DNA from: Geosiphon pyriformis uo1
Taxonomy: Eukaryota > Fungi > Glomeromycota
Direction: 5' to 3'
NCBI GenBank assembly: GCA_016748015.1
Contig: JAAOMT010000258.1
Location: forward strand, 64,173 to 128,172
DNA length: 64,000 nucleotides
The notes under the pieces are model-generated. The model made no database searches. It saw only the letters and a list, made by a program, of their open reading frames with translations, and was not told where the DNA came from. Numbering within the stretch: position 1 is the stretch's first letter; every line of letters starts with the position of its first letter. This document shows positions 3,130 to 63,000 of this stretch, piece after piece. The position numbers and the translations under genes are program-made.

Positions 3130-4000
3130 TATTACAGATGATTATTTGGGATTTCAAAGCAAATAACAAATCCATAACTTGGTGCTTGATTGGTACTCTG
3201 GTGTAGATATCTGAAGGTTTTATTAATCTAAAGATTTGTTGTAAAGTCTTTTGTATAATGAACAGAGATTTAACAATTGTTTCAGTAGCCTTTCAGAATC
3301 ACAATTCCATCAAATTTTTTTCTTAACATGGTGGCTGATAATCCTTCTGGTAAGTTATTCTCAAATCTATAAGTGTTCTACTCTTGTTTTACAGATCTTT
3401 TACTAATCACTATGACATTTGTATTTCTGTGCTTAATCCTTAATCAATTTAGTAAAATCACAGAAATAACCAAAAAAATAAAATAAAAGAAGATAAAAAA
3501 ATAACAAAAAAAATAAAAATAAAAGAAGACAAAGAAATAACAAAAGCAATAGTAAGTTAGTATCTTGTCAATAGCTGTAATCAAGAGCTATTGTTCTAGT
3601 GTGGTTAAGTATCAATTATCATTAACATGAAGTGTTGATAGTGGAAGTGGATTTAATATAGAAAATAATTATTTATTGATATTTGTGAATGGAAAAGTCA
3701 CTTAGATAAAATTTAAACTAAGAGGTCTGTCTTTTCTACTTCTAATGCTACCACTATATATACATAATTTGGGTTCTATAAGATTGCTTACATTCTCAAG
3801 CAATGTGCTATAATTTCTCAAGCAATGCTCACATTGCTTAGCAATGTGCTATATTTTCTTGATATTGCTTCACATTGCTGAGCAATGTGTCATAATTTCT
3901 GATATTGCTCTATATTGTTGAGCAATATGCTCATGTGCTAACTACTACTTTTTTATTGGCCTACTATTTTTTATATCTGTTTTTTTTTTTATGAGTAACA
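3130..4000 (-). repeat. Gypsy A 3' LTR
   Basis: T(G>A)TTA...TAACA termini. Direct repeat of 12683-13552, adjacent to the PPT. Confidence 0.92.
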
Positions 4001-4016
4001 TTATCTCTTCCTTTTT
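4001..4016 (-). other. Gypsy A polypurine tract
   Basis: AAAAAGGAAGAGATAA on the minus strand, immediately upstream of the 3' LTR. Confidence 0.85.
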
Positions 4017-4670
4017 AATATTGAGCTCTATTAAAATCTTTGTTTTGAATTAACTTTAGTATTTCTTTTTCAAGTATTGTTTGTTCGACTCTGTTTCTCA
4101 CATCTTCTACCTGTGTATTGTTCATTCTTCCTTATTGGTTAATGGTTATGGTTTCCATGTTAGAATGTAACAGTATATTTGAGTAGTTTCAAAATATGTT
4201 GTGTAATTAGTATATTGTTTTAACATGTAGTGTTAAATTTGGTTTCTTTCTGATAAATTCTTCAATTTGCTGTATTATGTCTTAGTTGAATATTCTCTTG
4301 AATTTGTCAATATACAACTCTTGAATATTCAACTTTTGATCTAATTGGTAGTAGTAATATGATATTGGAAGTTGTTCTGTCCATTGCTTCTAATTTTTTT
4401 TTGTAAGCTCTTCTGTTGATCCTATAATAGGTATTTTCCCAAAAGTGTTCTTCACTTTTTCTATTAAGTTATTTGTCCAGTTTTTATTATTCTTTGGTGG
4501 CTGCTGATATAGTGTATTCTTTGTCTTTCTTTGGGTGTTTTGATAGAATTATTTGGTTGTTAATAACAATTTCTATGTCTAACTGTTGTTGACTTAAGAC
4601 CTGGAACAATTGTTGAGCTATAGTGTGAATATGATCTGGTATTTTCAATTTTCTTGGTTGTTTTTGTCAT
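4015..4670 (-). pseudogene. Gypsy A extra 3' ORF (homologue of B 25643-26302)
   Basis: IPDHIHTIAQQLFQVL..DIEIVINNQI, WTEQLPISYYYYQLDQKLNIQELY and the DFNRAQY* end; disrupted. Confidence 0.8.
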
Positions 4671-4709
4671 GTATACTGTGTTTTTATATATTTTTGGTTG
4701 TTCAATTTG

Positions 4710-17065: not shown

Positions 17066-17914
17066 TGTTACTTATAGAAATATAGGAAATATATTAGCAT
17101 AATTATTAGCCAATCAGAAGTAAGCATAGTAAATGTGGAATTCCAGGATTCCTCTTAGGAATTGCAAAATTCCAGAAATTTCAGGATTCCTCTCAAAGGA
17201 ATCACAGAATTCCAGAAATTCCAGGATTCCTGTTGTGAAGAATCAAGGAATTGAGGAATCTCAATTATGTATATATAGCAGTAGTGTTAGAAACAGAAAA
17301 GACAGAATCGATACCACAGAATCCTTAGCCTAGAAAACACAATCATCAAATAAATAATTATTCCATATCTCAACCCACTCTTCACTATCAACACTTCATG
17401 TTGATAGTAATTGATACTTAACCATGCTGGAACAATAGCTTTTGATCATGGCTATTGATGAGATACTAATCTGCAAAATCGTCTTGGCTTATTTCTTTCT
17501 TTCTTTATTTTTTTTTTATTTATTTTTCTTTATTTTATTTTGATTTGTTGTTGTATACTAACTGATTAAAAGGATTAAGCACTGAGTTATTGACATCAAG
17601 GATAGCCTGGTAAAAGACCCAGAAATAAGGGTAGAATTTTATATATTATCGAATAGCTTACCAGAAGGGCATGACTGCCAAACTAAATCTGGCCACCACG
17701 CTGAGAAAGAAATTGGAAAAACTCTTGGAAAGATACATTTATTATCGACACTATTGAATCTCTGTTCATTATACAAAGGACTCCACCAAAACCTTCAGAC
17801 CCATCAAAGCCTTCAGATACAACACTTACAGAACATCATCAATGGAAATAGCTTTTGAGCACCAAGTTATGGGTTTGTTATTTAATTCAACCACAGAAAT
17901 AATCACCTGTAACA
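17066..17914 (+). repeat. Gypsy B 5' LTR (849 bp)
   Basis: Direct repeat of 26317-27203; CCAAT at 17110, GGAATTCC array, TATATATA at 17270. Confidence 0.96.
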
Positions 17915-17916
17915 TT

Positions 17917-17933
17917 TGGTGCTCCCTGTGAAG
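17917..17933 (+). other. Gypsy B primer-binding site (tRNA ending ...GGAGCA-CCA, e.g. elongator Met or Ile(UAU); not resolved)
   Basis: TGGTGCTCCCTGTGAAG, 2 nt after the LTR; conserved in four elements. Confidence 0.88.
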
Positions 17934-17976: not shown

Positions 17977-20900
17977 GTGGCAGAATCAGAAACTATAGGA
18001 GCAAACCATTTAGAATTCGCAAAATTTTTATTTCAACCTTATTGTCAATACTTGGGATTAAACCACAATTATATATCCGCTGAATCAGTCTTCAATTTCT
18101 ACATCAACAAAAAGATTTCTTCTTTATTAAGAACACCAGTGAATACTGAATCAGCAAGGAAAACTTTCTATAGGAAATTAATTCAAAATACCAACCTGCC
18201 AACAAATCATAATTTCGCATCCATCATCACTGAGATCAACAAAGAAATTGAACATCACACTCAACAAAGATATCCAATTACATACGCTAGTAAAGACAAG
18301 GGAAAATTACAAACACCAGCAGTAACACCCAGAAAGATACAGCCACCTGCTTGGAAGAAAAACAGAGTTGAATCCCCAAGCAACCCATCCTACCACTATA
18401 CATCTGGAAGCGCCATCAACATATTATCAACAGACGCATTTACATCAGCTATGACATTAGCATTTGGATGATTCCCATTCCAAAGTAGACAAATGAAAAC
18501 AGAATTGTTAGGACCATACAGCGAGTACTTTGAGGGATTTAATTCGCAATTATTAACCCCATCAGGACTTTGATCACCACCGCCTCCACCAGATTTCAGA
18601 ATTTCTGATCCATGGGAAGCAGTGGAATCAGAAAAGGAGAAAGAAGAATCAGAGGATCAAGAATTCACTTACCAGCACCCAATCACTAAAAACCCGGAAG
18701 TTGAAACCCCAAACCTTCAAACTCAGCAACAGTTAGAAAATCCGGAAATCGAAACTCCGAATATTTGAACACCACCAAATCAAAAAAATCAAGAATCCAA
18801 ATTAATTAATCAGCAAAACTTACCTCCAGTAATCATCATCAATCAACCACCGATTAATCCTATAGCCGAACCCATACAACAGCCACTTCAGCTACCACTC
18901 CAACAGCCAAGACAACAACAACTGCTTCAACAGCCACCACAACCACCTAACTTAGATCCAATGGTCTATGCACCAATCGCAAAACTCGACAACTTTACTG
19001 GCAAAGAGGATGACACCCAAATATGGCTGAACAATATAGAAAAAGCCATCACAGCCAACGGATGGAATGATGCACGAGCAATGCAAGCCATTCCCTACTT
19101 TCTCAAAGATACCACCAATTCATAGTACCAGAGCTTGATTAATAAACCACAAGATTTCAATGTCTTCAAAGTGGAATTTCTGAGATACTTCAGCAACAAT
19201 AATAGCATCAATCGCCTAGTTAATGTATTCACCACTATAAAACAAGGAGAAACTGAAGCAGTCACCACTTACCTGGGACGCTTCTATCGAAACTTACGCC
19301 AAATTCAAGCAATTAACACCAATTATTTCACAGCACCACAGATACTCAATCAGTTTATCCGTGATCTGCGCAGCAGCATCTTACAACATGTACATCCATT
19401 GCATCCTGGCACGCTTCAAGACGCAGTGACACATGCCAGAGATTTTAAATCTGCCGAGTCAGAGACTAATCATGCGCAAGCTGTTAATCTAGTCATGAAC
19501 AGATCATCTGAATTGGATTCCAAATTGAAGAAGTTCAGTGAATCAATTAATAAGAGATTGGAAGGATACTTAGCTGACAATCACATCATTTATCAGTCTT
19601 CACAATGATGCAATAATTAAGGAAACTCTAATCATGGCCAAAATTAACTATGCCCATCTGTATCAACCAATCAACAGTGGCAACAGGAAATGCATATCTG
19701 CTACTATTGTGGGAAACAAGGACATATCCAAATTGACTGTTGCCAGCATCTAAATAACCAACAATCAAGAAATCAATATCAAAACCCCAATCGCCAGTTC
19801 CAAACTCTGAATCATTATCCAAATCAGAATCAAGACCAATATTAAAATAATTACCTGCCCATGACACAGCAACCAATCTATCACCTGCCAGTGTATCAAC
19901 CTCTGATTCATCAGCCGCAGCCACAAGTAATATATCAACTGCAGCCACAAATTATCTATCAACTCCAACCAATTCAAACACCAACCCAGAACCCAGCTCA
20001 AATAACATCAGACAACCCTCAATCCAGAGTCACTTAAAACTGGAAATCGGCAATGGTTGTTCACCAACCAATCCCCAGTTCACTAAACTCATCATCAGGA
20101 TCACACACTCGGAATTTGGATACCAGTCACGTCCAAAACCCAAATTTTCAGCATTATTTAAGTCTCCTAGTTACCCCAGAAAACACCACCTCCAACAACA
20201 CAGAATCCAATCAGCATGTACCTATCAACACCATTCCACTGGCAACCATCTCTAGTGATGAATCCCTAGCAGCCATCTTTCCTTTCGAACTCAAAGAAAA
20301 CACAACAATACCATTATTCAGTGGAGCTGCCCTCGAAGAGAAACTCATAACAGCCATGTACACGGATGCCAAAGTTGATGGTCACCTCATCAAACTCATC
20401 CTAGATAGTGGATCAGCTGGCAGCATAATTACTAGACAACTCATGGATCAATTAGGTCACTGAGTTGATTAAGCTGCCAGTGCCAGAATCATTACAGCTG
20501 ATAGAGCAACCAAAACTCCAATCGGCGAAATCGACAATTTTCCTTTTAAAGTCAATGGCATCATGACTCCCATTAAAGTTCTAATAATGAAAGCCACTTA
20601 ATACCAAGCTCTCATTGGTAATAACTGGCTATCCAAAGCCAATGCAACATTAGACTAGAACACCCAAGAACTCCAGCTAATGTATCAGGGCCAACACATA
20701 CATGTTCTAGCCACATGTGGCCACTTTAAAACTCCTCCAAGAAAGAAACTATTGATCGAGCTGGAGGAGGAGAAAGAAAAGCCTACCTGGGAAGCCTACC
20801 AAGTATCATGGGCTAACGAAGAGCATAACGAGCTGCCGCCAATACTTTCCTAGAACAACAACTATCAGAAAAAAAGAAAACAAAAGGAAGAACTTACCTG

Positions 20901-23900
20901 GGAAATTGATGACCTGACGTGGACCGACCACAATGATAGCAAACCAACTTCAAGTTGGGAATGGGAAGAAGACAATAAAAATAAAGGGAAGGAAAAAGAA
21001 AAAGAGACCACTCAAACCACTACTACTGATAACACCTACATTACACCACAATGATCTATCTATCGTCGACCCAAGCTTATCTGTGTCAATTGTGGCAAGA
21101 AATTGTCATCAATGAGCGCATGCTGTGGGGACGATGAGGAATATTCAACAGCAACTAAGTTCTATTGCCGCCCATGCATCCTTGAATGCTTTGAAAGACC
21201 AAAACGAGTAGAGAAATAGGACAATCAGCCATGCTTAGCTTGTGGAGTGACTCTCTTGGATAAAGGAATATGACATGACATTCCTGGACATGGAGGAACG
21301 TGTGACATATTGTGTCAATACACGATTCTAATAAGTGACTGGGTAAAAAAAGGAACTCCAATAGAAGCAGCCTGGAGAAGAGCAGTACAGCGATTGAACA
21401 GTTACCCACATGACAATGATGAAATTTGGCAAATAGCACTTGCAAAAATCAAAGGGGCGACGCCAGAAGAGATAAAAATGATCAAAGACAACCCTCCAGA
21501 ACCTTTAGAGCTTAACTGGAACACCGAACCCATCATAAACCTCCTGGACCCAGAACAATTCCATAAACACTATCAAGAATTAGCACCCACAAGGGAAGAA
21601 CAAGAACAACGGTTAGAGCAGTTGAACACTCGACTATGTTAACACTGCCTAATTCCCTGTGACTTTCAGTATTGCAATGAGTGTGACCTCATTTACAATC
21701 CACCATCACACATGATCTACACAATCCCGGAAGAGGAAGAACCAATCAGCAGCTGCGCATCAGAATCAGAATCGCCGATCAATCGCGATTCAAACTCCGA
21801 CAATGATGATGACAACAACAGTTCAAGCTCCGTTCAAAAGGGCAATGACAATGACAATAATTCCAACTCAGATACAAACTCTGATGTAAACTATGAACAA
21901 TACATTGCACTACCAGATCTCTTCAAGGAACAAGAGTTGAAATGGTATAGTGACAATGGGGAAGGTATTATGCCAGAATGAATGCATGATACTGATGTAG
22001 GGTTTGATCTAAGATATCCAGGAAAAAATGCCATCAAATTGGAACCACATTCACACACCTGCATTGATCTGAAAATAGCACTAGAAATTCCGGCAACAAC
22101 CATGTTTCAACTAACATCTAAGAGTAGTTTAGCAAAAAGAGGGATTAATATAAGAGGAAGAATAATTGATGCGGGATATGTAGGAAATATCATTGCTATG
22201 CTACAAAATGACTCAGAAAAGGCCTATGTAATAGAGCCCAATAAAAAGATAGCACAGGCAATATTCCTGCCTCTGGTTAGAATAGCTTAGTTAGTATCAG
22301 TGGGAAAGAAGGAGGAATTAGGAATAACGGCGAGAGGAATATAAGGATTCGGATCCACAGGTAGAATAGATGTATCAGTTAACATAGCAGAGGAAGAAAT
22401 TGTTGGCCAAGGAGAAATTATCTCAACTGGTCAAGCTATTTCTATTCCACCATATAGCCAGTATATGTTAGCAATAGAAAGGAAGGAAAAGGAACAAGAA
22501 CAGATGTTTGAAGTGGAAGCAACCCTTTGTGAATCAGGAGAGATTGGATTGATCAATCTCCACATACTAGCTAAAAGCTATAGCAGCATAAAAATTCTCA
22601 TCTACAACAATACTGAGAATGTTATTAGCATACCAGAAGGAACCACCATCGGATATTTGACCACAGAAATAGAGGACCAACCACCAAACCCCATTCCAGA
22701 CTTTCCACAACTTTGTGGATATGTTGACATCACATCACAAACAATCTATGAATGAGACGAATGTTATTTGCTTCAACCAGAACAATTGAAACAAATGAAC
22801 ATAGGAAACTTAGATCCACTCCAATGTATGTAGCTCAAGATGTTACTCAACAATTTCAATGACATCTTTGCCAGTGAAAATGAGTTTGGCTGAACTGACA
22901 TTATTCAGCATCAGATCAAGACTGAAGATGCAATGCCAATCAAACAAAGAGCATACAGAGTGCCGCCAGCCAGCCACGAGATTATTCATCAAGAGATAAA
23001 CAGAATGCTTGACAATAGGCTAATTCAACCATCAATGAGTTCATGGTTGTCACCAGTGGTACTTGTCCATAAAAAAAATGAAAAAATCCGGTTTTGTGTG
23101 GACTACAAAAAACTCAATGGTATAACTCGTGGAGACAGTTATCCAACTCCATGAATACAGGAATTATTCAATGCTTTCGGTGGAAATAAATGGTTCTCCA
23201 CATTAGATTTGGACAGTGGTTACTAACAAGTAGCCATGAATTCAGCTGACAAAAAAAAGATGGCATTTACTACTAGAGAAGGGAATTTCGAATTTGAAGT
23301 AATGCTATTCAGCTTAACCAATGCCCCAGTGACTTTCCAACAGCTAATGGAAATTGTTTATATGAGCTTATTGTGGAAATCAGTAGTTGTATACTTGGAC
23401 AACACCAATGTATTCTCAAAGACGTTTGATGATTATCTTCATCATCTTCAACAAGTGTTCGAAAGACTAAGAAGAACAGGACTGAAGCTAAATGCGACAA
23501 AGTGCTTCTTTGGCAAGACGGAACTCAAATTCTTGAGACACATAGTCAACAAAGACAGCATCAAAATGGATTCAGAGAAAATAGAGATAGTAAAGAATTT
23601 TCCAGTACCAACCAATATAACAGAACTGAAATTATTCTTGGGATTTGCCAGCTACTATTGTCATTTTATCAAGAACTTTTCTAAGATAGCGCAGCCACTC
23701 AATCAACTACAAAACAAAAATGCAAAATATGAATGGACAGAAAGTCAACAAAAAGCTTATCCAAGCTCCAGTGCTGATCTATCCAGATTACAGCAAACTA
23801 TTCATCATCACCACTGATGCATCTGGCCAAGCATTGGGAGCAGTATTATTTCAGAGAAGACTGGACAGCAGAGAACATCCAGTAGCATATGCCAGCAGAG

Positions 23901-25618
23901 GTTTAACACCAGCCGAAAAGAACTATGGAACACCGGAACAAGAACACTTAGCAATATACTGGGCCGTCATAAAATGAAAAAAATACTTGAGCCAGAAGTT
24001 TGAAATATACACAGATCACAAGGGATTAACATCACTCCAAAAATAAGAATTTGGAGATGGAAGACAGTCAAGATGGAAAATGACACTTGGACCATACAAT
24101 TATACTATATATTACAAAAAGGGAAAAGACAATGGAAATGCTGATGGTTTATCGTGAATAAGACAAATTTAAGAACATTTCAACCCAAAAAAATAATAAA
24201 ACCAGAACAATACCAATGGAAAAATACAACTAAAGATGAACATACAAAAATATCAACAATTACAATATTATCTAAATACTCAACAGTTCAAGGAGAATTT
24301 ATCTCATACAGAACAAAGGGGTATTAAACAACAATCAAAATATTTTATTACTTACCAAAATATACTTTATTGGAAAAATAGAAGAGATCCAGATCAACCA
24401 ACCAGAGTAATCACAAAGCCAGAAAAAGAGACAATATTATTTAACATGTACTCAAATCCAACAGCAGGACATTTTCACAAAGAAACAACCATGGAAAGAA
24501 CTAGAAAAAGATACTATTGGCCATCAATGTACTCAGACATCATTCAATATGTTCAAAATTGTGATGCTTGTTAGCGAAGAGGAGGAACAAGACCCAGTAA
24601 ACCATTAAGACCAATCAAAGTAGGACAACTATTTGACTGTATGGGAATTGATTTAGTCGGACCATTAACAATCACCAGCAGAGAAAACAGATACATAGCA
24701 GTAGCTATAGATTATCTCACTAAATGGCCAGAGGCAAAAGCAATTCAAAGAGTGGATGCAGAATCTGTTGCCGAATTCGTTCATCAGAATTTGATTTGTC
24801 GACATGGATGTCCAAAAGAATTATTATCAAATCAAGGAACTCATTTTGTGAACAGAACATTAACAGAATTGAGCCAAAGATTCGGGATCAAGAGACCATT
24901 ATTATTACCATACCATCCACAAACCAACGAATTAGTAGAAAAATTCAACAGAACATTGTGTGAAGCAATAGCCAAGCTCAGCCAAGAAAACCAGAACGAT
25001 TGGGATTTGTTCATACCATCAGTACTATTTGCTTATTGGACAATGAAACAAGATACTACACAAGCAACACCATTTGAATTAGTATACGGGAGAATAGCAA
25101 CATTACCAGTAGAAAGAGAAATTAACACATATCCAGCTGAACCAATAACAGAAGAAAATTTTCAAAAAACATTGCTGAGAAGAACATATGACTTAATGGA
25201 AACATTGGAAAACAAACGAAGAAGAGCAGCTGATAATATCCAAAAGTCACAAAAAACACAAAAAAAAAGACACGATAGTCAACTACCAGACAAACCAGTT
25301 GAATTCAAGATCAGAAACAAAGTATTACTATATTGTACCAAAGCGGAAAAACAATGGAGTAGAAAATTTGATCCCAAATAGGACAGACCATTTCAAATAG
25401 AAGAAAATCTAGGAAATGGAGCTTACAAATTAAGATTGGATAACAAAATTTTAACCAAAGCAGCACATAGAGATCGACTGAAACCATATCACAACATCAC
25501 ACTACTATCTACCAGTAATATTTCACAATTAGGAGTACAGAGAATACTAGTCCAACCAGATGAGATTCCACAAGATCTGAAACCAATTATTATTATCGAC
25601 AACAACACGTTAAATTGA
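17977..25618 (+). pseudogene. Gypsy B single-frame Gag-Pol polyprotein (Gag-PR-Cys-rich-dUTPase-RT-RH-IN)
   Basis: ORF pieces from 17977 to 23236 share one frame; after a 23-bp deletion at ~23755, pieces 23720-25436 share one frame. Motifs: CYYCGKQGHIQIDC (19699-19740), LILDSGSA (~20395), YLDN (YLDD), TTDASG, H..CDAC, GIDLVG / LSNQG / VEKFN and a GPF-like RPFQI. Confidence 0.95.
21961..22362 (+). pseudogene. dUTPase domain within Gypsy B pol
   Basis: All five trimeric dUTPase motifs: VGFDL, SKSSLA, IIDAGYVGNI, KIAQAIF and RGI*GFGSTG. Confidence 0.93.
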
Positions 25619-25642
25619 TCCATCAAAAGAATATATAAAGAC

Positions 25643-26302
25643 ATGGTAGACACAACAGGAAATATCAGAAAAATGGAAATTACAGACAACATTCACTCAT
25701 TAGCACAACAACTCTTTCAATTAATCCAACACCAGGAAATGGAGATTACAATCAATCAACAAACCATTTGATATCAAGATACTAGAAAAACATTTCAACT
25801 CAGAACACAGAAGAAAACTGAAAATACCATGGACAAAATTATGGCAAAAGTAAAATTAGCAATAAAAGAATCGACAAAAGAGTCACTATATCAAGAGTTG
25901 ACTAAAGAAACTTGGAATTGGTGGATACAACAATTCCCACGAAACTATTGTTATTTCTACTTGGGACAACACGTAAATATTCAAAATCTATATACGGATA
26001 AAACAAAGCGATTATTTGACAAAAGAATACTACAACAATTAGAACATTTTGTGAGAAAGAACAACTTATCTACACAAGCCCAAGCCATATACCGAATACA
26101 CACAGCATTTCAAAATAAACCAGAAATATTACACAACAGAACAATGGATATGGTTACCAGTAATCAACTAGGAAAAATCACCAATGCTCAATTTGAAAAA
26201 TTACAAACCCAAATAACACAAGTAATTCTCGAAAACGAAATCCAGAAAATACTTCAAGAAGGGGAATTACATGAGTTAGATTTCGATGAAGCTCAATATT
26301 AA
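25643..26302 (+). pseudogene. Gypsy B extra 3' ORF (~219 codons, unknown function, one in-frame TGA)
   Basis: ATG 25643 is in frame with ORF 25829..26302. The stop overlaps the PPT. Homologues occur in A, D, E and F. Confidence 0.85.
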
Positions 26303-26316
26303 AAAGAAGGAAATAA
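26301..26316 (+). other. Gypsy B polypurine tract
   Basis: AAAAAGAAGGAAATAA immediately before the 3' LTR. Confidence 0.87.
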
Positions 26317-27203
26317 TGTTACTCATAGAAATATAGGAAATATATTAACATAATTATTAGCCAATCAGAAGTAAGCATAGTAAATGTGGAATTCCAGGAT
26401 TCCTCTCAGGAATTGCAGGATTCCAGGAATTTCAGGATTCCCAATAAGGAATTGCAGGATTCCAGAATTCCAGGATTCCTCTCAAAAGAATCGCAAGATT
26501 CCAGGAATTCCAGAATTCCTGTTGTAAAGAATTGAGGAATTGAGGAATCTCAATTATGTATATATAGCAGTAGTATTAGAAACAGAAAAGACAGAATTGA
26601 TATCACAGAATCTTTAGCCTAGAAAACACAATCATCAAATAAATAATTATTCCATATCTCAACCCACTCTCCACTATCAACACTTTATGTTGATAGTAAT
26701 TGATACTTAACCACGCTGGAACAATAGCTCTTGATCATGGCTATTGATGAGATACTAATCTGCAAAATCCCCTTGGCTTATTTTTTTCTTTCTTTATTTT
26801 TCTTTTATTTATTTTTCTTTATTTTATTTTGATTTGTTGTTGTATACTAACTGATTAAAAGGATTAAGCACTGAGTTATTGACGTCAAGAATAGCCTGGT
26901 AAAAAACCCAGAAATAAGAGTAGAATTTTATATATTATCAGATAGCTTACCAAAAGGGCACGACTGCCAGACTAAATCTGGCCACCACACTGAGAAAGAA
27001 ATTGGAAAAACTCTTGGAAAGATATATCTATTATCGACACTATTGAATCTTTGTCCATTATACAAAGGACTCAACCAAAACCTTCAGACCCATCAAAACC
27101 TTCAGATACAACACTTACAGAACATCATCAACAGAAATAGCTTTTGAGCACTAAGTTACGGGTTTGTTATTTAATTCAACCACAGAAATAATCACCTGTA
27201 ACA
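26317..27203 (+). repeat. Gypsy B 3' LTR (887 bp)
   Basis: Direct repeat of the 5' LTR, 38 bp longer; the extra length lies in the U3 tandem array. Confidence 0.96.
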
Positions 27204-28508
27204 ACACACATCAAAAACATGACCAAATTGTTTACATTTGGCACAACACACTAATGAAAGACTAGCCCAGCACAAGTTCACTCATTTGAACACTGGGACA
27301 AAACCAATAGTAGCCAATTTGAATGCTTTATTAGCAAAACAAACCACAGCACATCTGTCATATACATATGAACTAGGATTGTGACCAATAAAACAAGTTC
27401 TCTTACCATATGAATCAAACAAACCAGACAAATCATGAGCAGTGATGCCAACTGGCAAAGTATAGAGCAAAGCTCTATGCTAATCTTTAAATACCTAAAA
27501 TTGTTTATTATCAATAGCTAGCACCACTTAAACTGAATTTTTTCTTATGAAAACAAACTATTTAGAAGCAACCAAACAGATAGCATCTACTGAATCAAAC
27601 TTAATCACAGCTTTTTGCCAAAGACCAATTAATTGCATCTTAACAGAAACAATCCCACCAAATTTGAAAAAGACTAATATAATGGCTAATTTGGGAAAAT
27701 CAACTGGAATCTCCTTGACAATCACCTCCTGATTTGACCAGCTGTTTACCTTTTTAAGATCATTATTGACAAAAATTTCTTCACTGATTGTCAGTGCCTT
27801 AGCCTTATTCAAACTAAATTCTGATGTAAAAGATGATATGATAATTCCAGAGAATTTTGAGGGAGTGGAGACACCTCCAAAATCATCTACTTGATAGAAA
27901 ATTTTTTTTATCGAAATTAATTTATTACTAACTAACTTGTCAGGCACTGCAGAAAACTTAATATTAAGTGCAAAAAATTTTGTCAAATTAAAACACCATG
28001 TTTCTAGGACATGTGATATGAGTGGTGGTACCTGATTAGACCTAATATCTACATGAGAAGGAAGCTTTAGCACAACATTGTTGTCACTCATACATTCGAA
28101 AAAAAGTTGCTTTAGTAGATTGCCCAACACATACATTCGAGTGTAAGTTTTTCCCAGTGTAGTCTCATTCATATTATTGTCTTCATTTGATTCCACATAA
28201 TTGGTTTCCTTAGTCACTGTGTTTGCCATAGTTTCTACATCTGAGAGATTGCTTATACTGCCAGCAACACTGCCAATTTTACTTCTCCAGAACACCCCAG
28301 ACTTGATGTCAATACTCCTAATATTTTCTATGCTCAACAGGCCAGCAGACAAGTCGATCACATTACTGGCAACAATCTTTTTTGGTTTTTTGTAGGACAT
28401 ACTTCAAGAGTAGACCATATCCACACACTTACTTTTTGCACTTTGGCAGGTCCCCAAACCAGCCAAAATTGAACTCGAGCCATCAACAGAAAAGCCCACT
28501 AGTTCTAT
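27204..28508 (-). pseudogene. LINE-a ORF1, N-terminal part with CX2CX4HX4C knuckle
   Basis: ORF 27558..28400 plus 27282..27470. The CAKCKQFGHVFDVC knuckle ends at the Gypsy B junction. The start (ATA GAA CTA GTG GGC) matches the LINE-b and LINE-c starts. Confidence 0.85.
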
Positions 28509-30489: not shown

Positions 30490-30638
30490 CCAGTTGATAT
30501 CATTCGATATCAAATCTGTTGACATCATCAATTTTTCTCATATTATATATACTCTTGCCGTAATTTACAAATTTCAAAAGTCAGATTTCAAAAGTCAAAT
30601 TTCAAACTCATAAAACTTAAACACGTACTATAAGCTTC

Positions 30639-33213
30639 ATGTATCGTAGGGTTTACTACAAAAAATACCTAAGGTTCTATAGTGATGAAGAATTGGAGCC
30701 CTATATTAGAAAAAAACCAGTTGAAACCTCTCAAGTGGGGAATAACGAGTCTGTAGACGTCCCAGTGGCCAAAATTGAGGGAAGCAGTATTCCCTTCCAA
30801 AACACTTCGTCAAACGACGAAGAGGTAAATGTGGACTTGACCAAGACAAGTGTAACTATAAAAGAAAAAGTTTCTNNNNNNNNNNNNNNNNNNNNNNNNN
30901 NNNNNNNNNNNNNNNNNNNNNNNNNNNNNNNNNNNNNNNNNNNNNNNNNNNNNNNNNNNNNNNNNNNNNNNNNNNNNNNNNNNNNNNNNNNNNNNNNNNN
31001 NNNNNNNNNNNNNNNNNNNNNNNNNNNNNNNNNNNNNNNNNNNNNNNNNNNNNNNNNNNNNNNNNNNNNNNNNNNNNNNNNNNNNNNNNNNNNNNNNNNN
31101 NNNNNNNNNNNNNNNNNNNNNNNNNNNNNNNNNNNNNNNNNNNNNNNNNNNNNNNNNNNNNNNNNNNNNNNNNNNNNNNNNNNNNNNNNNNNNNNNNNNN
31201 NNNNNNNNNNNNNNNNNNNNNNNNNNNNNNNNNNNNNNNNNNNNNNNNNNNNNNNNNNNNNNNNNNNNNNNNNNNNNNNNNNNNNNNNNNNNNNNNNNNN
31301 NNNNNNNNNNNNNNNNNNNNNNNNNNNNNNNNNNNNNNNNNNNNNNNNNNNNNNNNNNNNNNNNNNNNNNNNNNNNNNNNNNNNNNNNNNNNNNNNNNNN
31401 NNNNNNNNNNNNNNNNNNNNNNNNNNNNNNNNNNNNNNNNNNNNNNNNNNNNNNNNNNNNNNNNNNNNNNNNNNNNNNNNNNNNNNNNNNNNNNNNNNNN
31501 NNNNNNNNNNNNNNNNNNNNNNNNNNNNNNNNNNNNNNNNNNNNNNNNNNNNNNNNNNNNNNNNNNNNNNNNNNNNNNNNNNNNNNNNNNNNNNNNNNNN
31601 NNNNNNNNNNNNNNNNNNNNNNNNNNNNNNNNNNNNNNNNNNNNNNNNNNNNNNNNNNNNNNNNNNNNNNNNNNNNNNNNNNNNNNNNNNNNNNNNNNNN
31701 NNNNNNNNNNNNNNNNNNNNNNNNNNNNNNNNNNNNNNNNNNNNNNNNNNNNNNNNNNNNNNNNNNNNNNNNNNNNNNNNNNNNNNNNNNNNNNNNNNNN
31801 NNNNNNNNNNNNNNNNNNNNNNNNNNNNNNNNNNNNNNNNNNNNNNNNNNNNNNNNNNNNNNNNNNNNNAATCTAGAAGGCGAAGAAAACCTAGCAGACG
31901 AAGAAAATCTAGAAGACGAAGGAAATCTGGAGCGCAAAGAATATCTAGCAGACGATGAATATCTAGCAGACGATGAATATCTATCAGACGATGGATATCT
32001 AGCAGACGATGAATATCTAGCAGACGATGAATATCTAGCAGACGATGAATATCTAGCAGACGAAGAAAATCTAGAAGACGAAAAAAATCTAGAAGATGAA
32101 GAAAACCTCGAACGCAAAGAAAATCTGGCAGACGAAGAAAATTTAGAACGCAAAGAAAATCTAGAAGACGAAGAAAATTTAGAACGCAAAGGAAATGAAA
32201 GTGAAGTAATTATGGAAAATAATAAAAATAAGATTACTCAATTGAGAGTGATTGAAGAAAAAACATTAAAAGTTCATCAAGAAATGGGAATATCCAGCGT
32301 TAATAATAAGGAAAATAATAATNNNNNNNNNNNNNNNNNNNNNNNNNNNNNNNNNNNNNNNNNNNNNNNNNNGGGATAACGGGGCCAAAAAAACAAAGGT
32401 GATATCGAGTCCTTTCTGTGAAAAGGAGACCAATAGTGATAAAATCCTCCTAATGGAGGAGAAAACTGGTGAGACGAGGCAAGCTATTGAAGAAAATCTA
32501 GAAGATGAAGAAAATCTAGAAGGCGAAGAAAACCTAGCAGACGAAGAAAATCTAGAAGACGAAGGAAATCTGGAGCGCAAAGAATATCTAGCAGACGATG
32601 AATATCTAGCAGACGATGAATATCTATCAGACGATGGATATCTAGCAGACGATGAATATCTAGCAGACGATGAATATCTAGCAGACGATGAATATCTAGC
32701 AGACGAAGAAAATCTAGAAGACGAAAAAAATCTAGAAGATGAAGAAAACCTCGAACNNNNNNNNNNNNNNNNNNNNNNNNNNNNNNNNNNNNNNNNNNNN
32801 NNNNNNNNNNNNNNNNNNNNNNNNNNNNNNNNNNNAAATAGAGATTTGGATAGTAAAGTAAATGAACTGAAAATGGCCAGAAAGGAATCACTGATACAAA
32901 ATCACAATGAGGAGATTGAAGGCGATGACTCCTTAGTGCCTGTTGTTTTTATTGACAACAGCAACCTTTTTGAAATTGAGGCTCGTTGTGTAAAATCAAC
33001 AGCTGATATTAATCCATCGAAAGGATACAGGTAATATTTCGTATCAAATTTTTTAATATGTTAAATAACAGCAACTGAAAATTAAATATTGATGACTTTA
33101 GGAAAAGAAAATCGGATGTTGAAGTGGATAGGTGGGTAGGAAGCAGGAAGAAGCAACACCTTGATTCAAGGACAGAAAATTCAATACCAAAGAGAAAAAA
33201 AAAATACAAATAA
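30639..33213 (+). CDS. Host gene for an acidic hexapeptide-repeat protein with basic NLS-like C-terminus (gapped; segment order uncertain; predicted intron 33031-33101)
   Basis: ATG 30639 is open up to the gap; EYLADD/ENLEDE repeats; CpGs retained. Removing the 71-bp GTAATA...TTTAG intron gives RKRKSDVEVDRWVGSRKKQHLDSRTENSIPKRKKKYK*. Confidence 0.7.
31870..32756 (+). repeat. 18-bp coding tandem repeat (GAATATCTAGCAGACGAT / GAAAATCTAGAAGACGAA); 31870-32113 duplicates 32513-32756
   Basis: Read directly; the 244-bp duplicate blocks abut N gaps. Confidence 0.9.
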
Positions 33214-36865: not shown

Positions 36866-37774
36866 TGTTACAAATAATTATTTTAGATAGTTAGAGTAAA
36901 TAACAAACCTGTAACTTGGTGCTCAATGGATATGAGATGGTAGTAATCTAAAGGTTTTCGCATCCTGAAGGTTTTGATTAAGTCTTTTGTATAATAAATA
37001 GAGATTCCTGTATTATTTTATCTGTAATCTTCCAGAATTGCAATTCTATCAATTTCTTTTTTAGCTTGATGGTCAGCAATCCTCTGGTAAGTAATCCATA
37101 ATTCTTACACATTCTACCCACACATAGTGGTTTTTTACCAGACAATCCTTGACATCAATAACTTAGCACTTAATCCTTAAAAAGTTTAATAAACCCCTAA
37201 TAAAATACAACAAAATAAAAAATATTAAGCCAAGGCAATACAAGTTAGTATCTTGTCAATAGTCATAATCAAGAGCTATTGTTCATGTGTAGTTTAAGTA
37301 TTAATTACTATCAACTTTTAGAACTGATAGCAAGCAATTGGATTTGGAAATGCTGAATAAGTATATTTATTGATATTTTGAAATGATATGTTTTTAACTA
37401 AAAATGATAACTAATAACTTTCTGTCTTTGGATTTTCTCTTTCTGCTTTTAATACTACTGCTATATATACATATTTTTTAATTTTACAGAATTGCTTTGA
37501 ATTGTCTGTTTTTGTTAGCTATTGCTTCGTTTTTTTATGTTATAGCTAATTATCTTATGTTATAATATGTTATTTGATGTTATTCTGTATTATAACATGT
37601 TATTCTATGTTATAATGCATTATTTTGTGTTATCCTGTATTATAATATGTTATCCTATGTTATAATGCATTATCCAACATTATTGCATGTTATTTTGTGT
37701 TTTTTTACATTTTGTCTCATTTTTTAGGTTACATTTTTCTTTCTTTCTTTGATTGGCTTTTTTTTTAAGTAATA
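36866..37774 (-). repeat. Gypsy D 3' LTR
   Basis: Direct repeat of 46098-47020, adjacent to the PPT. Confidence 0.92.
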
Positions 37775-40700
37775 TTATCTCTTTTTTTTTAATATTGAGT
37801 TTTTGTAAAATTAGTTATGTTTGTTAATAGAACTTCATTCGTGTAATATTTAATGATTATATTAAATATGGTTTTTTGTAGATTTTTGAACTATTGATTA
37901 ATCATTTGTCCTGTGTTGTTGACTGTTATCTTTTTCAAAAATCTATCCAATAATACATTTGGACAATATCAAAAAGTAATGTATAATCAACATGCTGCTT
38001 TATAATATAGTATTAGGTTGCTTTTTCTTACAAATTTTTTCACTTGTCACATTGCTTTTTTGTTGAAAATTTTTTGGTTGTAATCTCTATATGGGTTTTT
38101 TAAGTCTAGTTATTCTCTAATTTTGTAAAACCAATATGTTAGAGGAAGTCTTTTTTTTCACTCTTGGGCATTGTTTAGTGTCTACTCCTCTGTTTCAGAG
38201 AGTTTGGTCTTATGAGCTAAAAATTCTTTAATTTTTTTTAGCTCAAAGGCTAAGTATATTGTATATAATTGTTTTTGTCTTCTATCTAATTTTCCCATTC
38301 CTTTTTCCTTCTTCCTTTCTTTTTCTTCATGTCCTATCTAAGAAGTATATTTAATTCTTTTTTGTAAAATTTTTTTTTTCAAGCAGAGTGTAAAGATAGG
38401 AACAGTTAGTTCTGGTTGAACTTTTGTTCATTTTTCTCGTCTTCTTATCTCTATATTTTATCTTTTTTTTATTGATTATAATCTCTATTTGAGATGTAGA
38501 TTTTTGAATTTTATCAAATAATTGTTTAGATAATTTTAAAATTTGGTCTGAAAGATCCATGTTTGAAATTTCTATTATTTTTTTCTTTGTGATCTCAAGG
38601 CTTATATACATGTAATATCTAAGTTTTAGTATGTAAATAGCTATATTTTGATGATTATAATTGGTTTTATATCTTGTAGTATATTTTTTGATTTGATTAA
38701 TAGAATTTGTGCTCCTAGTTATGATACCAATGATGTTGATCCTTGTGTTATTTGATAAATTTTTAAACAATTTCTATGTGCTGTCTTTTTTAAAATTCTG
38801 TTTTCTAATTGTAACTTGTAAGATCTATTTCCCAAAATTTTGTGTATATGAAATGATCTGTCCTATTTTGGATCAAACTTTTCATTTCACTGTTTTTCTG
38901 CTTTGTTATGATATAATAATACTTTGTCTCCAATTCTAAATTTAACTGGTTTATCTGATAGTTGGTTGTTGTGCCTTTTTTTTTGTTTTTCTTGTGACTT
39001 TTGGATGTTATCAGCTGCTCTTTGCCATTTGTTTTCTAATATTTCCATTAAGTCATATATTCTTCTCAACAATGTTTCTTAGAAATTGTTTTCTGTTATT
39101 GGTTCTATTAGATATGTATTGACTTTTATCTCAACTGGTAATGTTGCTGTTCTACTATATACTAATTTAAATAGTGTTGCTTATGTAGTATTTTGCTTTA
39201 TTATCCAATAAACAAATAATACTGATGGTATGAATAAATTTCATTCATCCTGGTTTTCTTGACTGATCTTGGCTATTGCTTCACACAATGTTTTATTGAA
39301 TCTTTTAACTAATCTATTGGTTTATAGGTAATATGGTAATGATAATAGTTTCTTTATGCCAAATTTTTGACTCAGTACTGTTAATGTTCTATTCACAAAG
39401 TAAGTTTTTTGGTCGGATAATAATTCTTTTGGACATCTGTGTTGACAAATCAGATCTTAATGAACAAATTTGGCAATGAATTCTGCATCTGCTTTTTGAA
39501 TTGCTTTTGCTTCTGGCCATTTAGTGAGATAATTGATGGCTAGTGCAATGTATCTGTTTCCTTTGCTAGTTATTATTAATAATTCAACTAAGTTAATTTC
39601 AATACAATCAAATAGTTGTTCTACTTTAATTGGTCTTAATGGTTTGTTGGGTTTTGTTTTTTCTCTTTTCTGACAAGTATCACAATTTTGAATGTATTGG
39701 ATGATGTTTGGATACATAGATAGCTAATAGTATCAATTTCTGGTTTTTTCTATGGTTGCTTCTTTATGGAAATGTGCTGCTATTGAATTTGAATACATGT
39801 TGAATAGTATTGTTTCTTTCTCTGGTTTCGTAATTACTCTGATTGGTTGTTCAAAATTCTTTTAGTTCTTTTGATAGAGTAAATTGCAATAGATGATAAA
39901 ATATTTTGATTGTTGTTTTATGTTGTTTTGTTTCTTTTGAGATAATTTCTTCTTAAACTGTTTAGTATTTATATAATGTTGGGGTTGTTGGTATTTTTGT
40001 GTGTTCATCTTTTTATTATATTTTTTTTTGGTTTAAAATGTTTTTAGATTTGTTTCATTTATAACAAACTGTTGGCATTTCCATTTTCTTTTCTTTTTTT
40101 ATAATGTATAATATAAGTATATAGTAAAAGTGCTATTTTTCATCTCACATAACAATTGTCTCCAAATTTTTGCTTCTGAATTAATGTCAATCTTTTGTGA
40201 TTAGTATACATCTCGAATTTTTGGCTTAAGTATTCTTTCCATTTGATAACTGCCCAATAGATAGCTAAGTATTTTAATGTTAGTGTTCTATAATTCTTTT
40301 TAGCTAGACCCAAATTGTGGCTAGTATATGCTACTGGATGTTCTTTTTCATCTAGTTTTCTCTGAGATAGTACAGCTTACAGTGCTTAATCTAATGCATT
40401 AGTAATAATAATAAATAGTTTGCTGTGATCTGGATAGATCAATACTGGTGCTTGGATAAGCTTTTTCCACAGTATATTAAAAGCTTCTTGCTGGGTTTCC
40501 ATTTATTCATACTTAATATTCTTAGTTTAAAGCTGATCAAGTGGTTGAACCAGTTTAGAAAAGTCTCTAATGAAGCAGCAGTAATAATCTTCAAATTTTA
40601 AAAATGCTCATAGTTCAGTCAAATTGGTTGGTACTGAAAATTTCTTTATTATCTTGATCTTATCTGGATCTGTTTTAATGTCATCTTTGCTTATGACATG

Positions 40701-53000: not shown

Positions 53001-56000
53001 AAATTGTAAATAAAGTTATAATTTAAAAATTTTATTTTATTATAATATAAACATAAAACACTAAGATATTTTTGTTATACAATTTTTTTATATAGTACTG
53101 GATAATTTTTTATATAAAAATTTATTATATAGATATATAATTTAGTTATAGTTTTGTTAATATATTTAATAACTATATGTAAATTAAAATACCAAATTAA
53201 AACAATCAAATACCAATTAATATTCTTAATAAATAAAAAATTTATAATTTTAAAACTTAAATTAATTTTTTATTAAATTTATTTAATCATATTATTTATT
53301 AATTTAATTAAATAATAAGTATTACCAAAACAATTTTACTATTAGTTATTAAGAATTTTTTTTAATATTAACTATTTTATAAAAATATTTTTATTTTTAA
53401 TTAAATTAACAATATAATAATATTTTATTTAATAATTATTACAAAAATTAAGCACAATTAACTTTAATTTAGCTTAGCAAGCATCTAAAAAAGCCTGGTT
53501 GTTTAAAAAAACCATAATTTTAATGGATATTAAAATATATTCAAAAATTAAAACAATAATTTATAATTTAGCCAAAGTTAAAAACAACAAACCATAAATT
53601 TTTATGTCTATATTTATATATAAATTTAAAAAATAAGCTGTTATATTATTAATAGCACTAAAAAAGCCAATTAAATTATTTATATAAACAAAAATCTTAG
53701 AAAAAATTATTTTTTTTAAACCAAAATAAATAATTTTGAAATTATTTATATTTAAAATATTTATTTTAAACAAACAATAAAAAAATATGAAATTTTTTTA
53801 ACTGAATTATTATTTATAATAAAATCTAAAATATATATAGTCCAAAAAAAAACAAAATTTCTGAAATTCAATTGTTTTTAATAATAAAATTTTTTTTAAA
53901 TAAAACAGTTATTGTAACTATTCAAAAACTAATTAGTAAATACAATATCAAACTGCTTAAAAAATTTTACAATTCTAAAATATTTTAAATAATTTAAAAC
54001 ATTTATAATAAAAACATTTTTTTAAGACAAAAAATATTGAATAAATTATTAAATAAAAACAATTTATTATCTAAAAAATTCTTATAATATTAATTAAAAA
54101 ATTATTTAAAAAATCAATTTTTAAATTAACTACAAATTAAAGTAAATTTTAAGAAACTTAATTTAATATTTGTAAATTTAATAATTTGTATTTAAACAAT
54201 TTATTAAAAATACTACTTATATTAGCAAAGTTTTTAACAGAAGCCAACTTTTTTTTAACTTAAATTTAAATAAAATATTTTAAATTATATAATAATAGAT
54301 AATATATTGTTTTATTTAAAAAAATTTTTTACAAATTAATTTTAAACTTTAATTTTTTGATTAATCAATTTTATTTTTTTCACATTTTTATTAATAAAGC
54401 TAAACTGAATTTTGTAATTAATAATAGATTACAAAACCAAAACCAAATATAAAAACTGTTTATTAAAAATTATTTTTTGTAAAACTATAAATGAAAAAAA
54501 CTTTATATTATTACAGATAAATTTTTTAAGTAAATTAATAGTTTTGTAACTTGGTATTTAGATTGATAATTGTTCTAATTTAAGAGTATTTTATATATAA
54601 ACAAAAAGTTAATATATAGTTTTTTAGTATAATAACTGATTTATTCTAATATTTATATATTTTTAAGAAGCAATTCTAGTTTTATGATTATATTATATTT
54701 TTTTCTGATATTTTTTACTAAATAATTTTTAATATTGTAATTTTAGTATTTTTAATTAATTAATTAGTAAAACAAAAAAAATAAATAAAAAATAAATAAA
54801 TAAATAAAATAGAAATTAGTATTTTATTAATAATTATAATTAAAAACTATTGTTTTAATATTGTTAAATCAATTTAATTAATGCTAATAATATTAATATA
54901 AACAATATTAAAATTTTAATAAAATAAGTTTGAATTTATGAATTAATTAATTTAAATATAATTAATTAATATATTTTATTAAAATAATTATAGTTTAAAT
55001 AAAAGTAATTATAAAAAATTAGACTAGTCTTTAAGTAAGCTTGTTTGTTTTTTAGATGTTATTTTTAGCTTTATAAATTTTTATAATTTTTTTGAATTAT
55101 TATTAAAATTCTAATATTATAACTTATAATAATTTTTTATTTTACAATTGACTATTTATATTATTATTATTATTTATTTTTTATATAAATAATAATTTTT
55201 TTTAATATTAAGCTTTAGTAAAATTTTATATGTTATTTTTTAAATAAGTTTAAGTACTTTTTTTTTATTATGGCTTTAAAAACTTTAGTTTTTAGTTTTT
55301 CAAATTGTGAATTGGTTATTTTTTTAAACTGATTTATTGTTAAGTTTTCTATAATTAAATATAATAGTATTCTATTATATTTATAAAAAATTATATATAA
55401 TTAATATATTATTTTTAAATGAATTATTAAGTTGTTTTTTTTAATAAAATATTCTATTTGTTGTATTGTTTTATTGTTAAATACTTTTTTGAATCTATTT
55501 ATATACAAAGTCAAAATATTTAATTATTGTTTCAAATAATAATAGTAATATATTATTTAAAACTGTTTTTTTCAACTTTTTTAGTCTTATTTTATTAGTT
55601 TTTTTGGTTAAACAATTGTTAATAAGTTTCTGAAATTTTTTTTTCTTTTTTAATAATTTTTTATATAATTATTTACTTGTTTTTAAGATTTTTTATATAA
55701 AGTTTTATTATTTGTTTTTGCTTTTTGAGTGTATTTATAACACATTTTTTGACTGTTAACTATTATTTTTATGTTTAAATCTTTGGTTTTTAATAATTAA
55801 AATAGTTATTAAGCTATTAAGTAAATATTATTTGTAATTTCTATTTTTATTATTTATTTTTAACATATTTTAGTTGTATTTATAAAAATTTTTTAACTTT
55901 ATAACATATTAGTTTTAATAATAATAATTAATTCTAAATCTTATGAAATTTTATCTAATTTAATCAATATTTTTTGTGTTTTTAATTGTGATATATTGAG

Positions 56001-60639: not shown

Positions 60640-63000
60640 AATATTATTATTCTATTAAATTGTAATTAGTCTTTTATAAATTTCTTAATTTTATTTTTGA
60701 TATTATATTAAAAACTTTTTTTTAAGATTATAATATAAATTATTTTTTAATTTTAATTTTTATATATATTTATGTATTTCTTTTTAAAAACTAACTTAAA
60801 TTTACTTACTATATTAAAGTCTTCTTTAAGATTATTCTTGCAATTGTCTAAAGTGTTTTTTTAATTTAAAAATACAAAATATTAATAATTTTTATTACTT
60901 TTTTTAATTTCTACAATAAAGTTTTTTATTAATTAATAATAACATAAATAATCTTGATCAGAAATTATTTTTTAAAAATTCAGCTGCTAAATAATAATTT
61001 TATTTAGCAAATAACACAAATAAATTTTTTAATATTTTGATTATAATAATTCAATTTTCAATATTTTTTTATTTTTTTTAATTAATAGTTTCTGTAAATA
61101 TTTATTTAAAAATAAAAACTAAAAAATAATTAAAATTAAAAATTAAAAACTGACAAGATTAAACTGTTAAATAAATTATTGTTTTTCTCAATATTAAAGT
61201 TAATATATATATACATATTTGTAGTTCTATAAGAAAATATATTGTAATATTTTTTTTTATATCTTAATCTGATATTTATTATTATTGTAAACTAGTACTT
61301 ATTACTATTGTAAATAATACTTGTTACTATATTAATTTTTTTTAAAAAAATTATTACTATGTTATATTGCGATTAGATAATTTGTATTATTTTTATAATT
61401 TTTTTGCTTAATTTTTGAATTATAATAATATTTTTTTTTAAAAAATTGAGTTCTGTTAAAATTAAAATTAAATTTTTATTGAATTTTAAGTTGTTATAGT
61501 AATTTAATACTGTATTATTAACTTATTATTATAATTTTTAAAATTGTAAATTATTAAGTTATTTTATATTATTAATAATTATTATATTTATAATTAAATT
61601 TAATAATATTTTATAATAGTTTTTAAATATTTTATAATAATTTTTAAATATTTTAAAAATGCTTTTAGATAAAATATACTATTTAGTTTTTTCAATAAAA
61701 CTTTTTAATTAATAGATTGTTTTATTATTAATATATTATTCAATATTATTTTTAATTTTTTAATAATTTTGTTAATAAATTTGTTATTGTATTTAGTAAT
61801 AATAGTATATGGCTCAAAATTAATTTTTTTTTGTTTTTGGGCTTTTTATTTTTTTTTTATATATGTTATTTTAGAGCTATTAATTATAATTTTTAGATCT
61901 AAATTTAATTATTAAGTTATATTATTAATGTTTTTTGGAATAAGTGTTATTGTTTTAAATTTTAATTGCTGTTTTAAATTTTTTTATATAAGTTTTTATG
62001 TTTGCTAAATTGTTTTTGATGTGATTTAAAATTAATTATTTTTTGAATAATATTTAATTAAAACTATTAATATCAAATCTTGTAAAATTTAATTTAATGT
62101 GTTTTAATTTTAAGTATTTATATTATTATTATTAGTTTATTGTAATATAATTTTAGTTAATTATTATATACTGCTTTTTTTAATATTTTTTATTTAATTT
62201 TAACTTATATATTCTATTTTCAAGTATTTTATAAATATAAAATAATTTATTTTATTTGTAATTAAACTTTTTACTTTAATGTTTTTTAGTTTCAATATAA
62301 TACAACAATACTTTGTCTTTAATTTATTACTAGTTATATTATCTAATAATTGAATATTTTATTTATTTTTTATTTTTATAATTGTTTAATATTTTGTTTT
62401 AATATTCTATATACTAATAGTACTATTAATATTATTAAATCTTATTTTTTTATGTTTATTGCTAATTTTGATTAATAATTTGCATAATATATAATTGAAT
62501 TATTTAATTAATTTATTTATTTATAAATAATATAATAATAATAATAATAATTTAATTATTATATATTATTTACAAAATATGTATATCAATTTTTATAAAT
62601 ATTTATATTAGCAAATTAAATTTTTATGCATAAATTAAGCTACTAAAATAGCATTAGCTGTTTTAATCTTTAATTTTTAGTTATTTAATAAGATAGTTTA
62701 TTATTATTATAAAATAATAATTGTTTTTTATTGTTATTAATAATAATCTAATTAAATTAATTCTAATTTTGTTAAATGATTATTTAATTTTTATTGGTTT
62801 TAATAATTTAGTTGTTTTTGTTTTACTTTTTATTAACATAAATAACAATTTTTTATGTATTAAATTATATTTGAATTTATTTTAAGCTAATAATAATAGC
62901 TAATTATATATTAAATAATTGCTACTTTTCTAAAATATCTTAAATAAATATCTAAATACATATTAAATAAAATAGTTTTTTTTATTTATAATTATAACTC
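60640..63000 (-). mobile_element. Gypsy F: very decayed 3' LTR (to ~61430), extra ORF and integrase
   Basis: tatatatacatattt TATA remnant at ~61205; PPT/ORF-end motif aattgagttctgttaaaatt at ~61445; integrase C-terminal match near 62300-62420. Boundaries are approximate. Confidence 0.55.

Follow-up and report, generated by a model that had tools for sequence, protein, structure and literature searches.

The question raised by this locus is what a conserved frame of its own, lying at the env position of a fungal LTR retrotransposon, encodes if it does not look like Env. The window analysed here, a 64,000-nt stretch of Geosiphon pyriformis DNA, is a pile-up of decayed LTR retrotransposons, and the frame under study (ORF3) lies in element B between integrase and the polypurine tract (PPT). 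This carrier has LTRs of the TG...CA type, a primer-binding site, a PPT and a target duplication, and the order of its Pfam matches (gag, protease, dUTPase, RT, RH, integrase) is that of gypsy elements. A CCHC knuckle lies in gag (sequence at 19700-19745), the C-terminus of integrase is a Tf2-1-like SH3 region by Pfam, and no chromodomain was found in the integrase of B by the same search. The features of B are as follows.

17066 (start of the 5' LTR) to 27207 (end of the target duplication), LTR end at 27203, plus strand: element B as a whole, with LTRs, primer-binding site, PPT and 4-bp duplication
17066..17914, plus strand: 5' LTR, with 47 differences from the 3' LTR over 849 aligned bases, 45 of them transitions
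17915-17931, plus strand: primer-binding site, directly 3' of the 5' LTR
24238..25618, plus strand: integrase, in a frame distinct from RT-RNase H that opens with an ATG of its own 3' of the RT-RNase H stop; rve at 24575-25378, tail to 25618
25632..25638, plus strand: TATATAA box 41 nt upstream of the ORF3 ATG, a candidate internal promoter
25643..25672, plus strand: upstream ATG and 10 in-frame codons, likely non-coding
25673..26302, plus strand: ORF3, 209 codons, with TGA at 25769-25771 in the window copy
25904..26245, plus strand: conserved ORF3 core, predicted to be all-helical (omega 0.33; models of the L001 core and of P0001, see below)
26301..26313, plus strand: PPT, overlapping the ORF3 stop codon
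26317..27203, plus strand: 3' LTR, from the alignment of the LTR pair

The first-pass annotation had described an open frame of about 220 codons at 25643..26302. Its position between integrase and the PPT was confirmed, but neither its openness nor its start was. The window copy is interrupted by the TGA at 25769-25771, a site that reads CGA in P0001, an intact 209-residue copy of ORF3 with 92% identity to B, and in 45% of the depth. The real start is the second ATG, at 25673, since all subfamilies begin there and synonymous variants are few upstream of it. Indeed, the 10 upstream codons (25643-25672) are missing from the other subfamilies, and 2 of 9 family variants are synonymous there versus 11 of 16 downstream (Fisher p 0.041; variants at ≥8% among 1,819 contigs of run X1 over 25590-25800, the stop site left out). 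These codons likely vary neutrally and are not coding. The sequence motifs proposed for the frame fared unevenly: the N-terminal motif, Y-x-(Y/F)-x-(L/I)-G and the terminal AQY-stop at the PPT were recovered, but the tryptophan and the AQY end are not general, being confined to the branch of elements A, B and D (with E and F). In distant subfamilies, the reading frame continues through the PPT into the LTR.

Homologous frames were expected in elements A and D, with remnants in E and F, and were found there (A, 4015-4648; D, 37789-38560). All ORF3 copies of the window are broken.

4015..4648, minus strand: ORF3 of A, with a frameshift near 4526-4548 and 5 stops; TATATAA at 4690
37789..38560, minus strand: ORF3 of D, frameshifted and with 7 stops over the part read; TATATAA at 38608
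55202..55844, minus strand: remnant E, with a decayed ORF3 that is A-like by its place in the tree
61439..61950, minus strand: decayed ORF3 of remnant F, by eye like the P0158/P0242 subfamily

Beyond the window, the 176-residue open part of ORF3 matched 110 proteins, every one a hypothetical protein of Geosiphon pyriformis. A profile search gave 203 matches, of which the 120 listed are all from Geosiphon, and a further profile search gave 18, with 17 from Geosiphon. Among 1.84 billion sequences, 118 representatives were matched, including 89 new ids, 20 of which were looked up and proved to be 18 Geosiphon and two metagenome proteins; the named relatives are all G. pyriformis proteins among those looked up. 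Five to six subfamilies were distinguished with a mutual identity of 18-41%, the sub-lineages of B being 62-69% identical. One unrelated metagenome contig, L001, has the order RT-RNase H, integrase, a 316-nt spacer, ORF3 and PPT, and its ORF3 (28% identity) is intact over 230 codons, running through the PPT into the LTR. The first Atlas match of another intact copy, P0202, was a 98-member Mucoromycota cluster, which may be the ORF3 family itself, and P0001 gave no usable match there. Sequence searches of Pfam, PHROGs and PDB with ORF3 returned nothing above the cut-offs, and no viral match to it was found. A pattern scan of metagenome and viral contigs was empty for P0001 and, for P0202, had its own contig as the sole match; tblastn of P0165 against phages gave two matches, both noise, and the family profile had no match in 151 bacterial genomes. 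Because homologues occur in 110 proteins and omega is 0.27 (see below), ORF3 is a real accessory gene family and more than a chance frame.

Additional frames in this position have been reported from plants, rotifers and fungi (PMC11963269, PMC11728184, PMC5408684 and PMC2864245), and most extra ORFs of LTR elements have no assigned role. The available portions of these sources describe an 'add. ORF' of unassigned function in fungal Ty3/gypsy elements (PMC2864245), extra ORF3s in bdelloid rotifer elements (PMC5408684) and the plant extra ORF TRP28 of Retand, for which a regulatory DNA-binding role has been proposed (PMC11963269), as is done here for ORF3. The likeness lies in an additional frame placed after pol and ahead of the 3' LTR and, for one Postia family, in a dUTPase between PR and RT. 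Unlike them, ORF3 matches none of TRP28, GDSL, DEDDy and Env in Pfam; it lies on the sense strand with a TATA box just upstream and stops on, or reads through, the PPT. The comparison with the fungal frames reported in 2010 (PMC2864245, available part) is by description only and not by sequence. In the literature covered, supplements excluded, the ORF3 protein is not described, and two surveys of AMF (PMC11952901; 10.1101/2021.03.30.436303), in the parts available, treat families and not ORFs. Judged by this literature, ORF3 represents an accessory gene family not previously described.

The proposal that ORF3 is a selected accessory protein and not Env was upheld by the codon analysis, by an excess of synonymous variants and by the lack of membrane features. 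Under a codon model allowing for base composition, the maximum-likelihood omega was 0.266 over 147 gap-free codons of A, B and D, with a likelihood-ratio statistic of 30.8 relative to omega 1; the core had 0.325, the N-terminus 0.113 and integrase 0.294. Shifted frames gave 0.65 and 2.0, on a protein-guided codon alignment that is slightly biased toward the true frame, its blocks being almost gap-free. Moreover, 11 of 16 family variants are synonymous versus 38 of 115 expected (p 0.004). With a simple count on decayed copies taken singly, pN/pS came to 0.75 (B-A) and 1.46 (B-D) for ORF3 and to 0.50 and 0.55, respectively, for integrase, and the second codon position was the least changed in ORF3 (B-A, 43 versus 73 and 84; B-D, 62 versus 83 and 69). 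A dN/dS near 1, named beforehand as evidence against selection, was thus not what maximum likelihood returned, but the simple B-D count did exceed 1; a confident match to a described retroelement domain, named likewise, did not occur in the searches run.

The frame had also been said to diverge more than pol, and indeed its tree is about four times longer than that of integrase (4.7 versus 1.07), a figure inflated by saturation, with omega about equal. Since omega equals that of integrase while the tree is some four times longer, the extra divergence reflects a deeper history and not relaxed constraint. At the DNA level, identity among the subfamilies is 0.82-0.83 for integrase but drops to 0.54-0.63 for ORF3 and to 0.54-0.57 for the U3 bin, from which we infer that ORF3 and U3 were swapped jointly, as one unit, onto a pol that the subfamilies share.

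Upstream of a shared LTR TATA box, U3 contains a tandem array that is specific to the subfamily.

26388..26519, plus strand: U3 array of B, period 39-40, made of GGAAT-N6-ATTCC palindromes and lying 5' of the LTR TATA box
3783..3930, minus strand: U3 array of A, period 41, GCAAT/ATTGC half-sites
37550..37683, minus strand: U3 array of D, TATAA/TTATA-rich, with periods 10 and 50

GGAAT occurs 17 and 12 times in B and not once in A and D, GCAAT 10 and 9 times in A, and TATAA 11 and 15 times in D. The palindromes of A and B are a single symmetric base apart and their arrays are related (z 6.4); the D array is not alignable (z 0.3 and 0.6). Downstream of the arrays, the LTRs of A, B and D are 66-70% alike. 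Four B1-type gene models continue into a B-type U3. The pairing of ORF3 lineage and U3 type is nevertheless not one to one, because P0206 (B4-type, with a B-group ORF3) is joined to an A-type U3. In L001, the U3 (3148-3600) has other repeats again, TTCTTAATT-type and TTGCCCTAG.

A TATATAA or TATAAAT box lies 40-48 nt upstream of the ORF3 start in five of five window copies (B 41, A 42, D 48, E 40 and F 40 nt), compared to 2.5-4.4% of 60-nt windows inside the elements; this comparison involves related copies, an A/T-only box that is spared by C-to-T decay, and AT-drifted remnants E and F. In L001, the 40-48 nt interval is without a TATA box, a TATAAAT lying farther out at about 126 nt upstream, and no U3-type palindrome was found beside the internal box. 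Judged by its sequence, the box is likely the internal promoter of ORF3.

The full-length P0001 model reached a pLDDT of 72.8 with an uncertain N-terminus and the L001 core model, with seven helices, a pLDDT of 89.5 and a pTM of 0.84, so that the ORF3 core is predicted to be a seven-helix domain. Foldseek with the ORF3 models returned nothing at E 0.001, and when the full-length model was used in fold searches, its two long helices dominated the outcome. Six of the 50 VIA matches listed extend to the end of the core model, and the three of these with an rmsd of 4.1 or less are Spo0J (Z 5.0, rmsd 3.4, 84 aligned), Raf1 (Z 4.9, rmsd 4.1, 90 aligned) and the KorB DNA-binding domain (Z 4.0, rmsd 3.8, 88 aligned), all structure matches being below the VIA background mark of Z 8 and the two best rows being partial helical bundles. 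The N-domain of Raf1 we take to be of the ParB helix-turn-helix type. ParB was not among the matches listed in a second structure search, nor were closterovirus, potyvirus or Tas folds among the top structure matches listed.

Conserved ORF3 columns, including G128, K129, N131, A138 and F146, outline a glycine turn and a basic helix; the turn at helices 3-4 is a conserved G-K-x-N, where the ParB proteins compared have L-G-x-x-R-S. P0165 scored E 0.037 against DUF1016_N over the core stretch in Pfam. Of three profile targets that were picked after the fold matches were known, the YhcG N-domain gave E 0.026 (DUF1016_N range 0.026-0.044), a score exceeding 120/120 shuffles and then 25/25 and 24/25; DUF3102 gave E 0.02-0.05, equalled by shuffles in 3/120, 4/25 and 3/25; and ParB gave no signal (E 0.42-0.57). 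A ParB-DUF3102 comparison by the same method scored 87%, and the global mode of profile comparison returned nothing. The likeness to the ParB/Spo0J/KorB helix-turn-helix, DUF1016_N (PF17761) and DUF3102 (PF11300) consists of seven helices in the same order, a glycine turn before a basic helix, superposition at Z 4-5 and weak DUF1016_N scores. Unlike ParB-type proteins, ORF3 gives no ParB profile signal, has a longer first helix of the helix-turn-helix, lacks a ParB N-domain or nuclease domain and occurs in a eukaryotic retroelement. A ParB-type helix-turn-helix in the modelled core is taken as a lead, with an even chance at best of being correct.

The window copies themselves have decayed heavily by C-to-T change: LTR pairs differ nearly solely by transitions (45/47 in B, 92/99 and 141/149 in the others), in all cytosine contexts, which would point to a strong host defence. 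In the best, though tentative, reading, the element would encode in ORF3 a DNA-binding protein that acts on its own U3 as an activator or anti-silencer, in the manner of Tas or VANC. ORF3 would be transcribed from its own internal TATA promoter, and its product would be a nuclear DNA-binding protein with a ParB-type helix-turn-helix. The protein would bind the palindromic U3 repeats of its own element and maintain LTR promoter activity in the face of host silencing, activation being assumed over repression. Since ORF3, PPT and U3 adjoin, protein and target would travel as one, both in copying and in exchange onto a shared pol. Among the functions offered by the first-pass annotation, nucleic-acid binding gained weak support from the basic helical core and the helix-turn-helix hint, and movement gained none. 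The pI is 9.1-9.9 in 8 of 10 ORF3 representatives, and two metagenome members are acidic (pI 5.4 and 5.9). An R/K/H-x(2-5)-PY motif, presumably of the nuclear-import type, is present in 7 of 10 representatives, the B subfamily being without it. The activator reading is weakened by the structure matches below background, the silent ParB profile and the two acidic members, and host factors could read the U3 arrays instead.

Tas is made from an internal promoter and binds both the LTR and that promoter (PMC7390438), and VANC targets consist of tandem repeats varying from one related element to another (PMC5735166). Like Tas/Bel-1 of foamy viruses, ORF3 lies just 5' of the 3' LTR, with an internal TATA promoter (a candidate here) and U3 binding (proposed here); unlike Tas, it belongs to a fungal host and an element with no env, and no homolog was among the matches listed in the Pfam, PDB and viral sequence and structure searches. 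VANC is likewise a fast-evolving element-encoded protein next to element-specific tandem repeats, in copies that decay by C-to-T, but it belongs to plant Mutator-type DNA transposons (VANDAL) and the ORF3 carrier is an LTR retrotransposon; no homology was found, and P0206 is one counter-example to strict repeat pairing. ORF3 is taken to belong to neither. The broader idea that this lineage, independently of foamy viruses and VANDAL, evolved a bacterial-type, ParB-like transcription factor of its own, expressed from an internal promoter and recognising the palindromic U3 arrays, with a swappable, coevolving ORF3-PPT-U3 cassette outrunning silencing, appears doubtful.

A rather unlikely alternative, that ORF3 binds RNA as a silencing suppressor, export factor or nucleocapsid-like coat, would suit a basic, helical and soluble protein, and it gains from the second Atlas match of P0202, a closterovirus coat protein (0.93, 156 shared features). 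Two reports add that, in a related fungus, small RNAs are directed at gypsy elements (10.1101/2021.03.30.436303) and that plant additional ORFs have been proposed as modulators of RNA silencing (PMC11728184). The likeness to filamentous virus coat proteins, however, is below the Atlas recognition mark (2186 versus 2300; 156 features versus 170) and without a significant Foldseek match; besides, gag already has its CCHC knuckle, and the whole-domain structure rows listed are DNA-binding or ParB-like.

An unlikely role is that of a DNA- or chromatin-binding partner of integrase, steering or stabilising integration as a chromodomain substitute. Integrase being its own frame with an SH3-like tail and no chromodomain match would agree with it, as would 4-bp duplications compatible with decayed CpG sites; a close partner should have diverged in step with integrase, but ORF3 is 18-41% identical among subfamilies versus 82-83% for integrase DNA, and its turnover goes with U3. 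Still less likely is that ORF3, expressed from the internal promoter, restrains its own element by repressing the LTR or blocking the particle and so caps copy number. This reading shares its anatomy with the activator reading; ParB/KorB-type domains include repressors, and Ty1 reportedly uses an internal promoter for copy-number control. Restraint fits poorly with LTR elements making up 41.2% of the G. pyriformis genome (PMC11952901, available part), and rapid turnover would suit an arms race better.

That ORF3 is a decayed Env, or helps the element to move from one nucleus or hypha to the next, is very improbable, although the location between integrase and PPT is in its favour. As the annotation had noticed, no signal peptide-like or transmembrane stretch was seen (best 19-residue Kyte-Doolittle mean 0.27-1.29 in 10/10 representatives), the furin site R-x-K/R-R is absent in 10/10, and the ten proteins have 209-259 residues and 0-3 cysteines, unlike the 400+ residues and cysteine-rich ectodomain of Env. 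Least probable of all, an unselected by-product of A-rich sequence, to which the simple B-D count of 1.46 and the broken window copies might point, is largely refuted by the omega of 0.27 and the intact L001 ORF3 at 28% identity, with the synonymous excess and the confident fold also speaking against it.

If ORF3 does act as an activator of its own U3, it would be a new trick of self-regulation for fungal retrotransposons and a convergence of fungi with the logic of foamy viruses and VANC. In either role, activator or anti-silencer, it would go some way to account for the expansion of LTR elements in Archaeosporales (in G. pyriformis, 41.2% of the genome; PMC11952901), and it could supply sequence-specific regulators for mycorrhizal fungi. 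The proposal is directly testable, with a candidate promoter, a confident fold, the intact copies P0001 and P0202 and candidate target motifs at hand.

Several other traits of these elements were recorded. Between protease and RT, B (21050-22380) has zinc-finger-like cysteine-rich motifs, an acidic linker and the dUTPase (Pfam E 3e-13). The pol of B is split at a conserved point (24150-24240; same in A and D; 772-801 in L001): RNase H closes with TAA in B, A, D and L001, and integrase has its own ATG 25-70 nt downstream, a separate frame of interest next to Ginger1-type integrase transposons. The region of A at ~7900-10800 is only 45-49% identical to B 19800-22300 and thus a different sequence, by replacement or insertion, with plus-strand ORFs at 9425-9916 (weak capsid match) and 10273-10815. 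The 4-bp target duplications are ACAC/ACAC for B (17062-17065/27204-27207) and ATAC/GCAC and ATAT/ATAT at the flanks of A and D, all compatible with decayed NCGN (CpG) sites. A hairpin with arms CTATCA ... TGATAG lies at 26672-26698, just past AATAAA, and at the same place in the LTRs of A and D; a long T-rich U5 comes after it. Elsewhere in the window are a coding-like 18-bp tandem array with three assembly gaps (30621-33034) and ORFs of 190-280 codons without Pfam match (16423-17067, 27558-28403, 49305-49982 and 52308-52889). Finally, 27300-27890 and 51612-52202 are ~71% identical and likely represent another element family, into which B was inserted.
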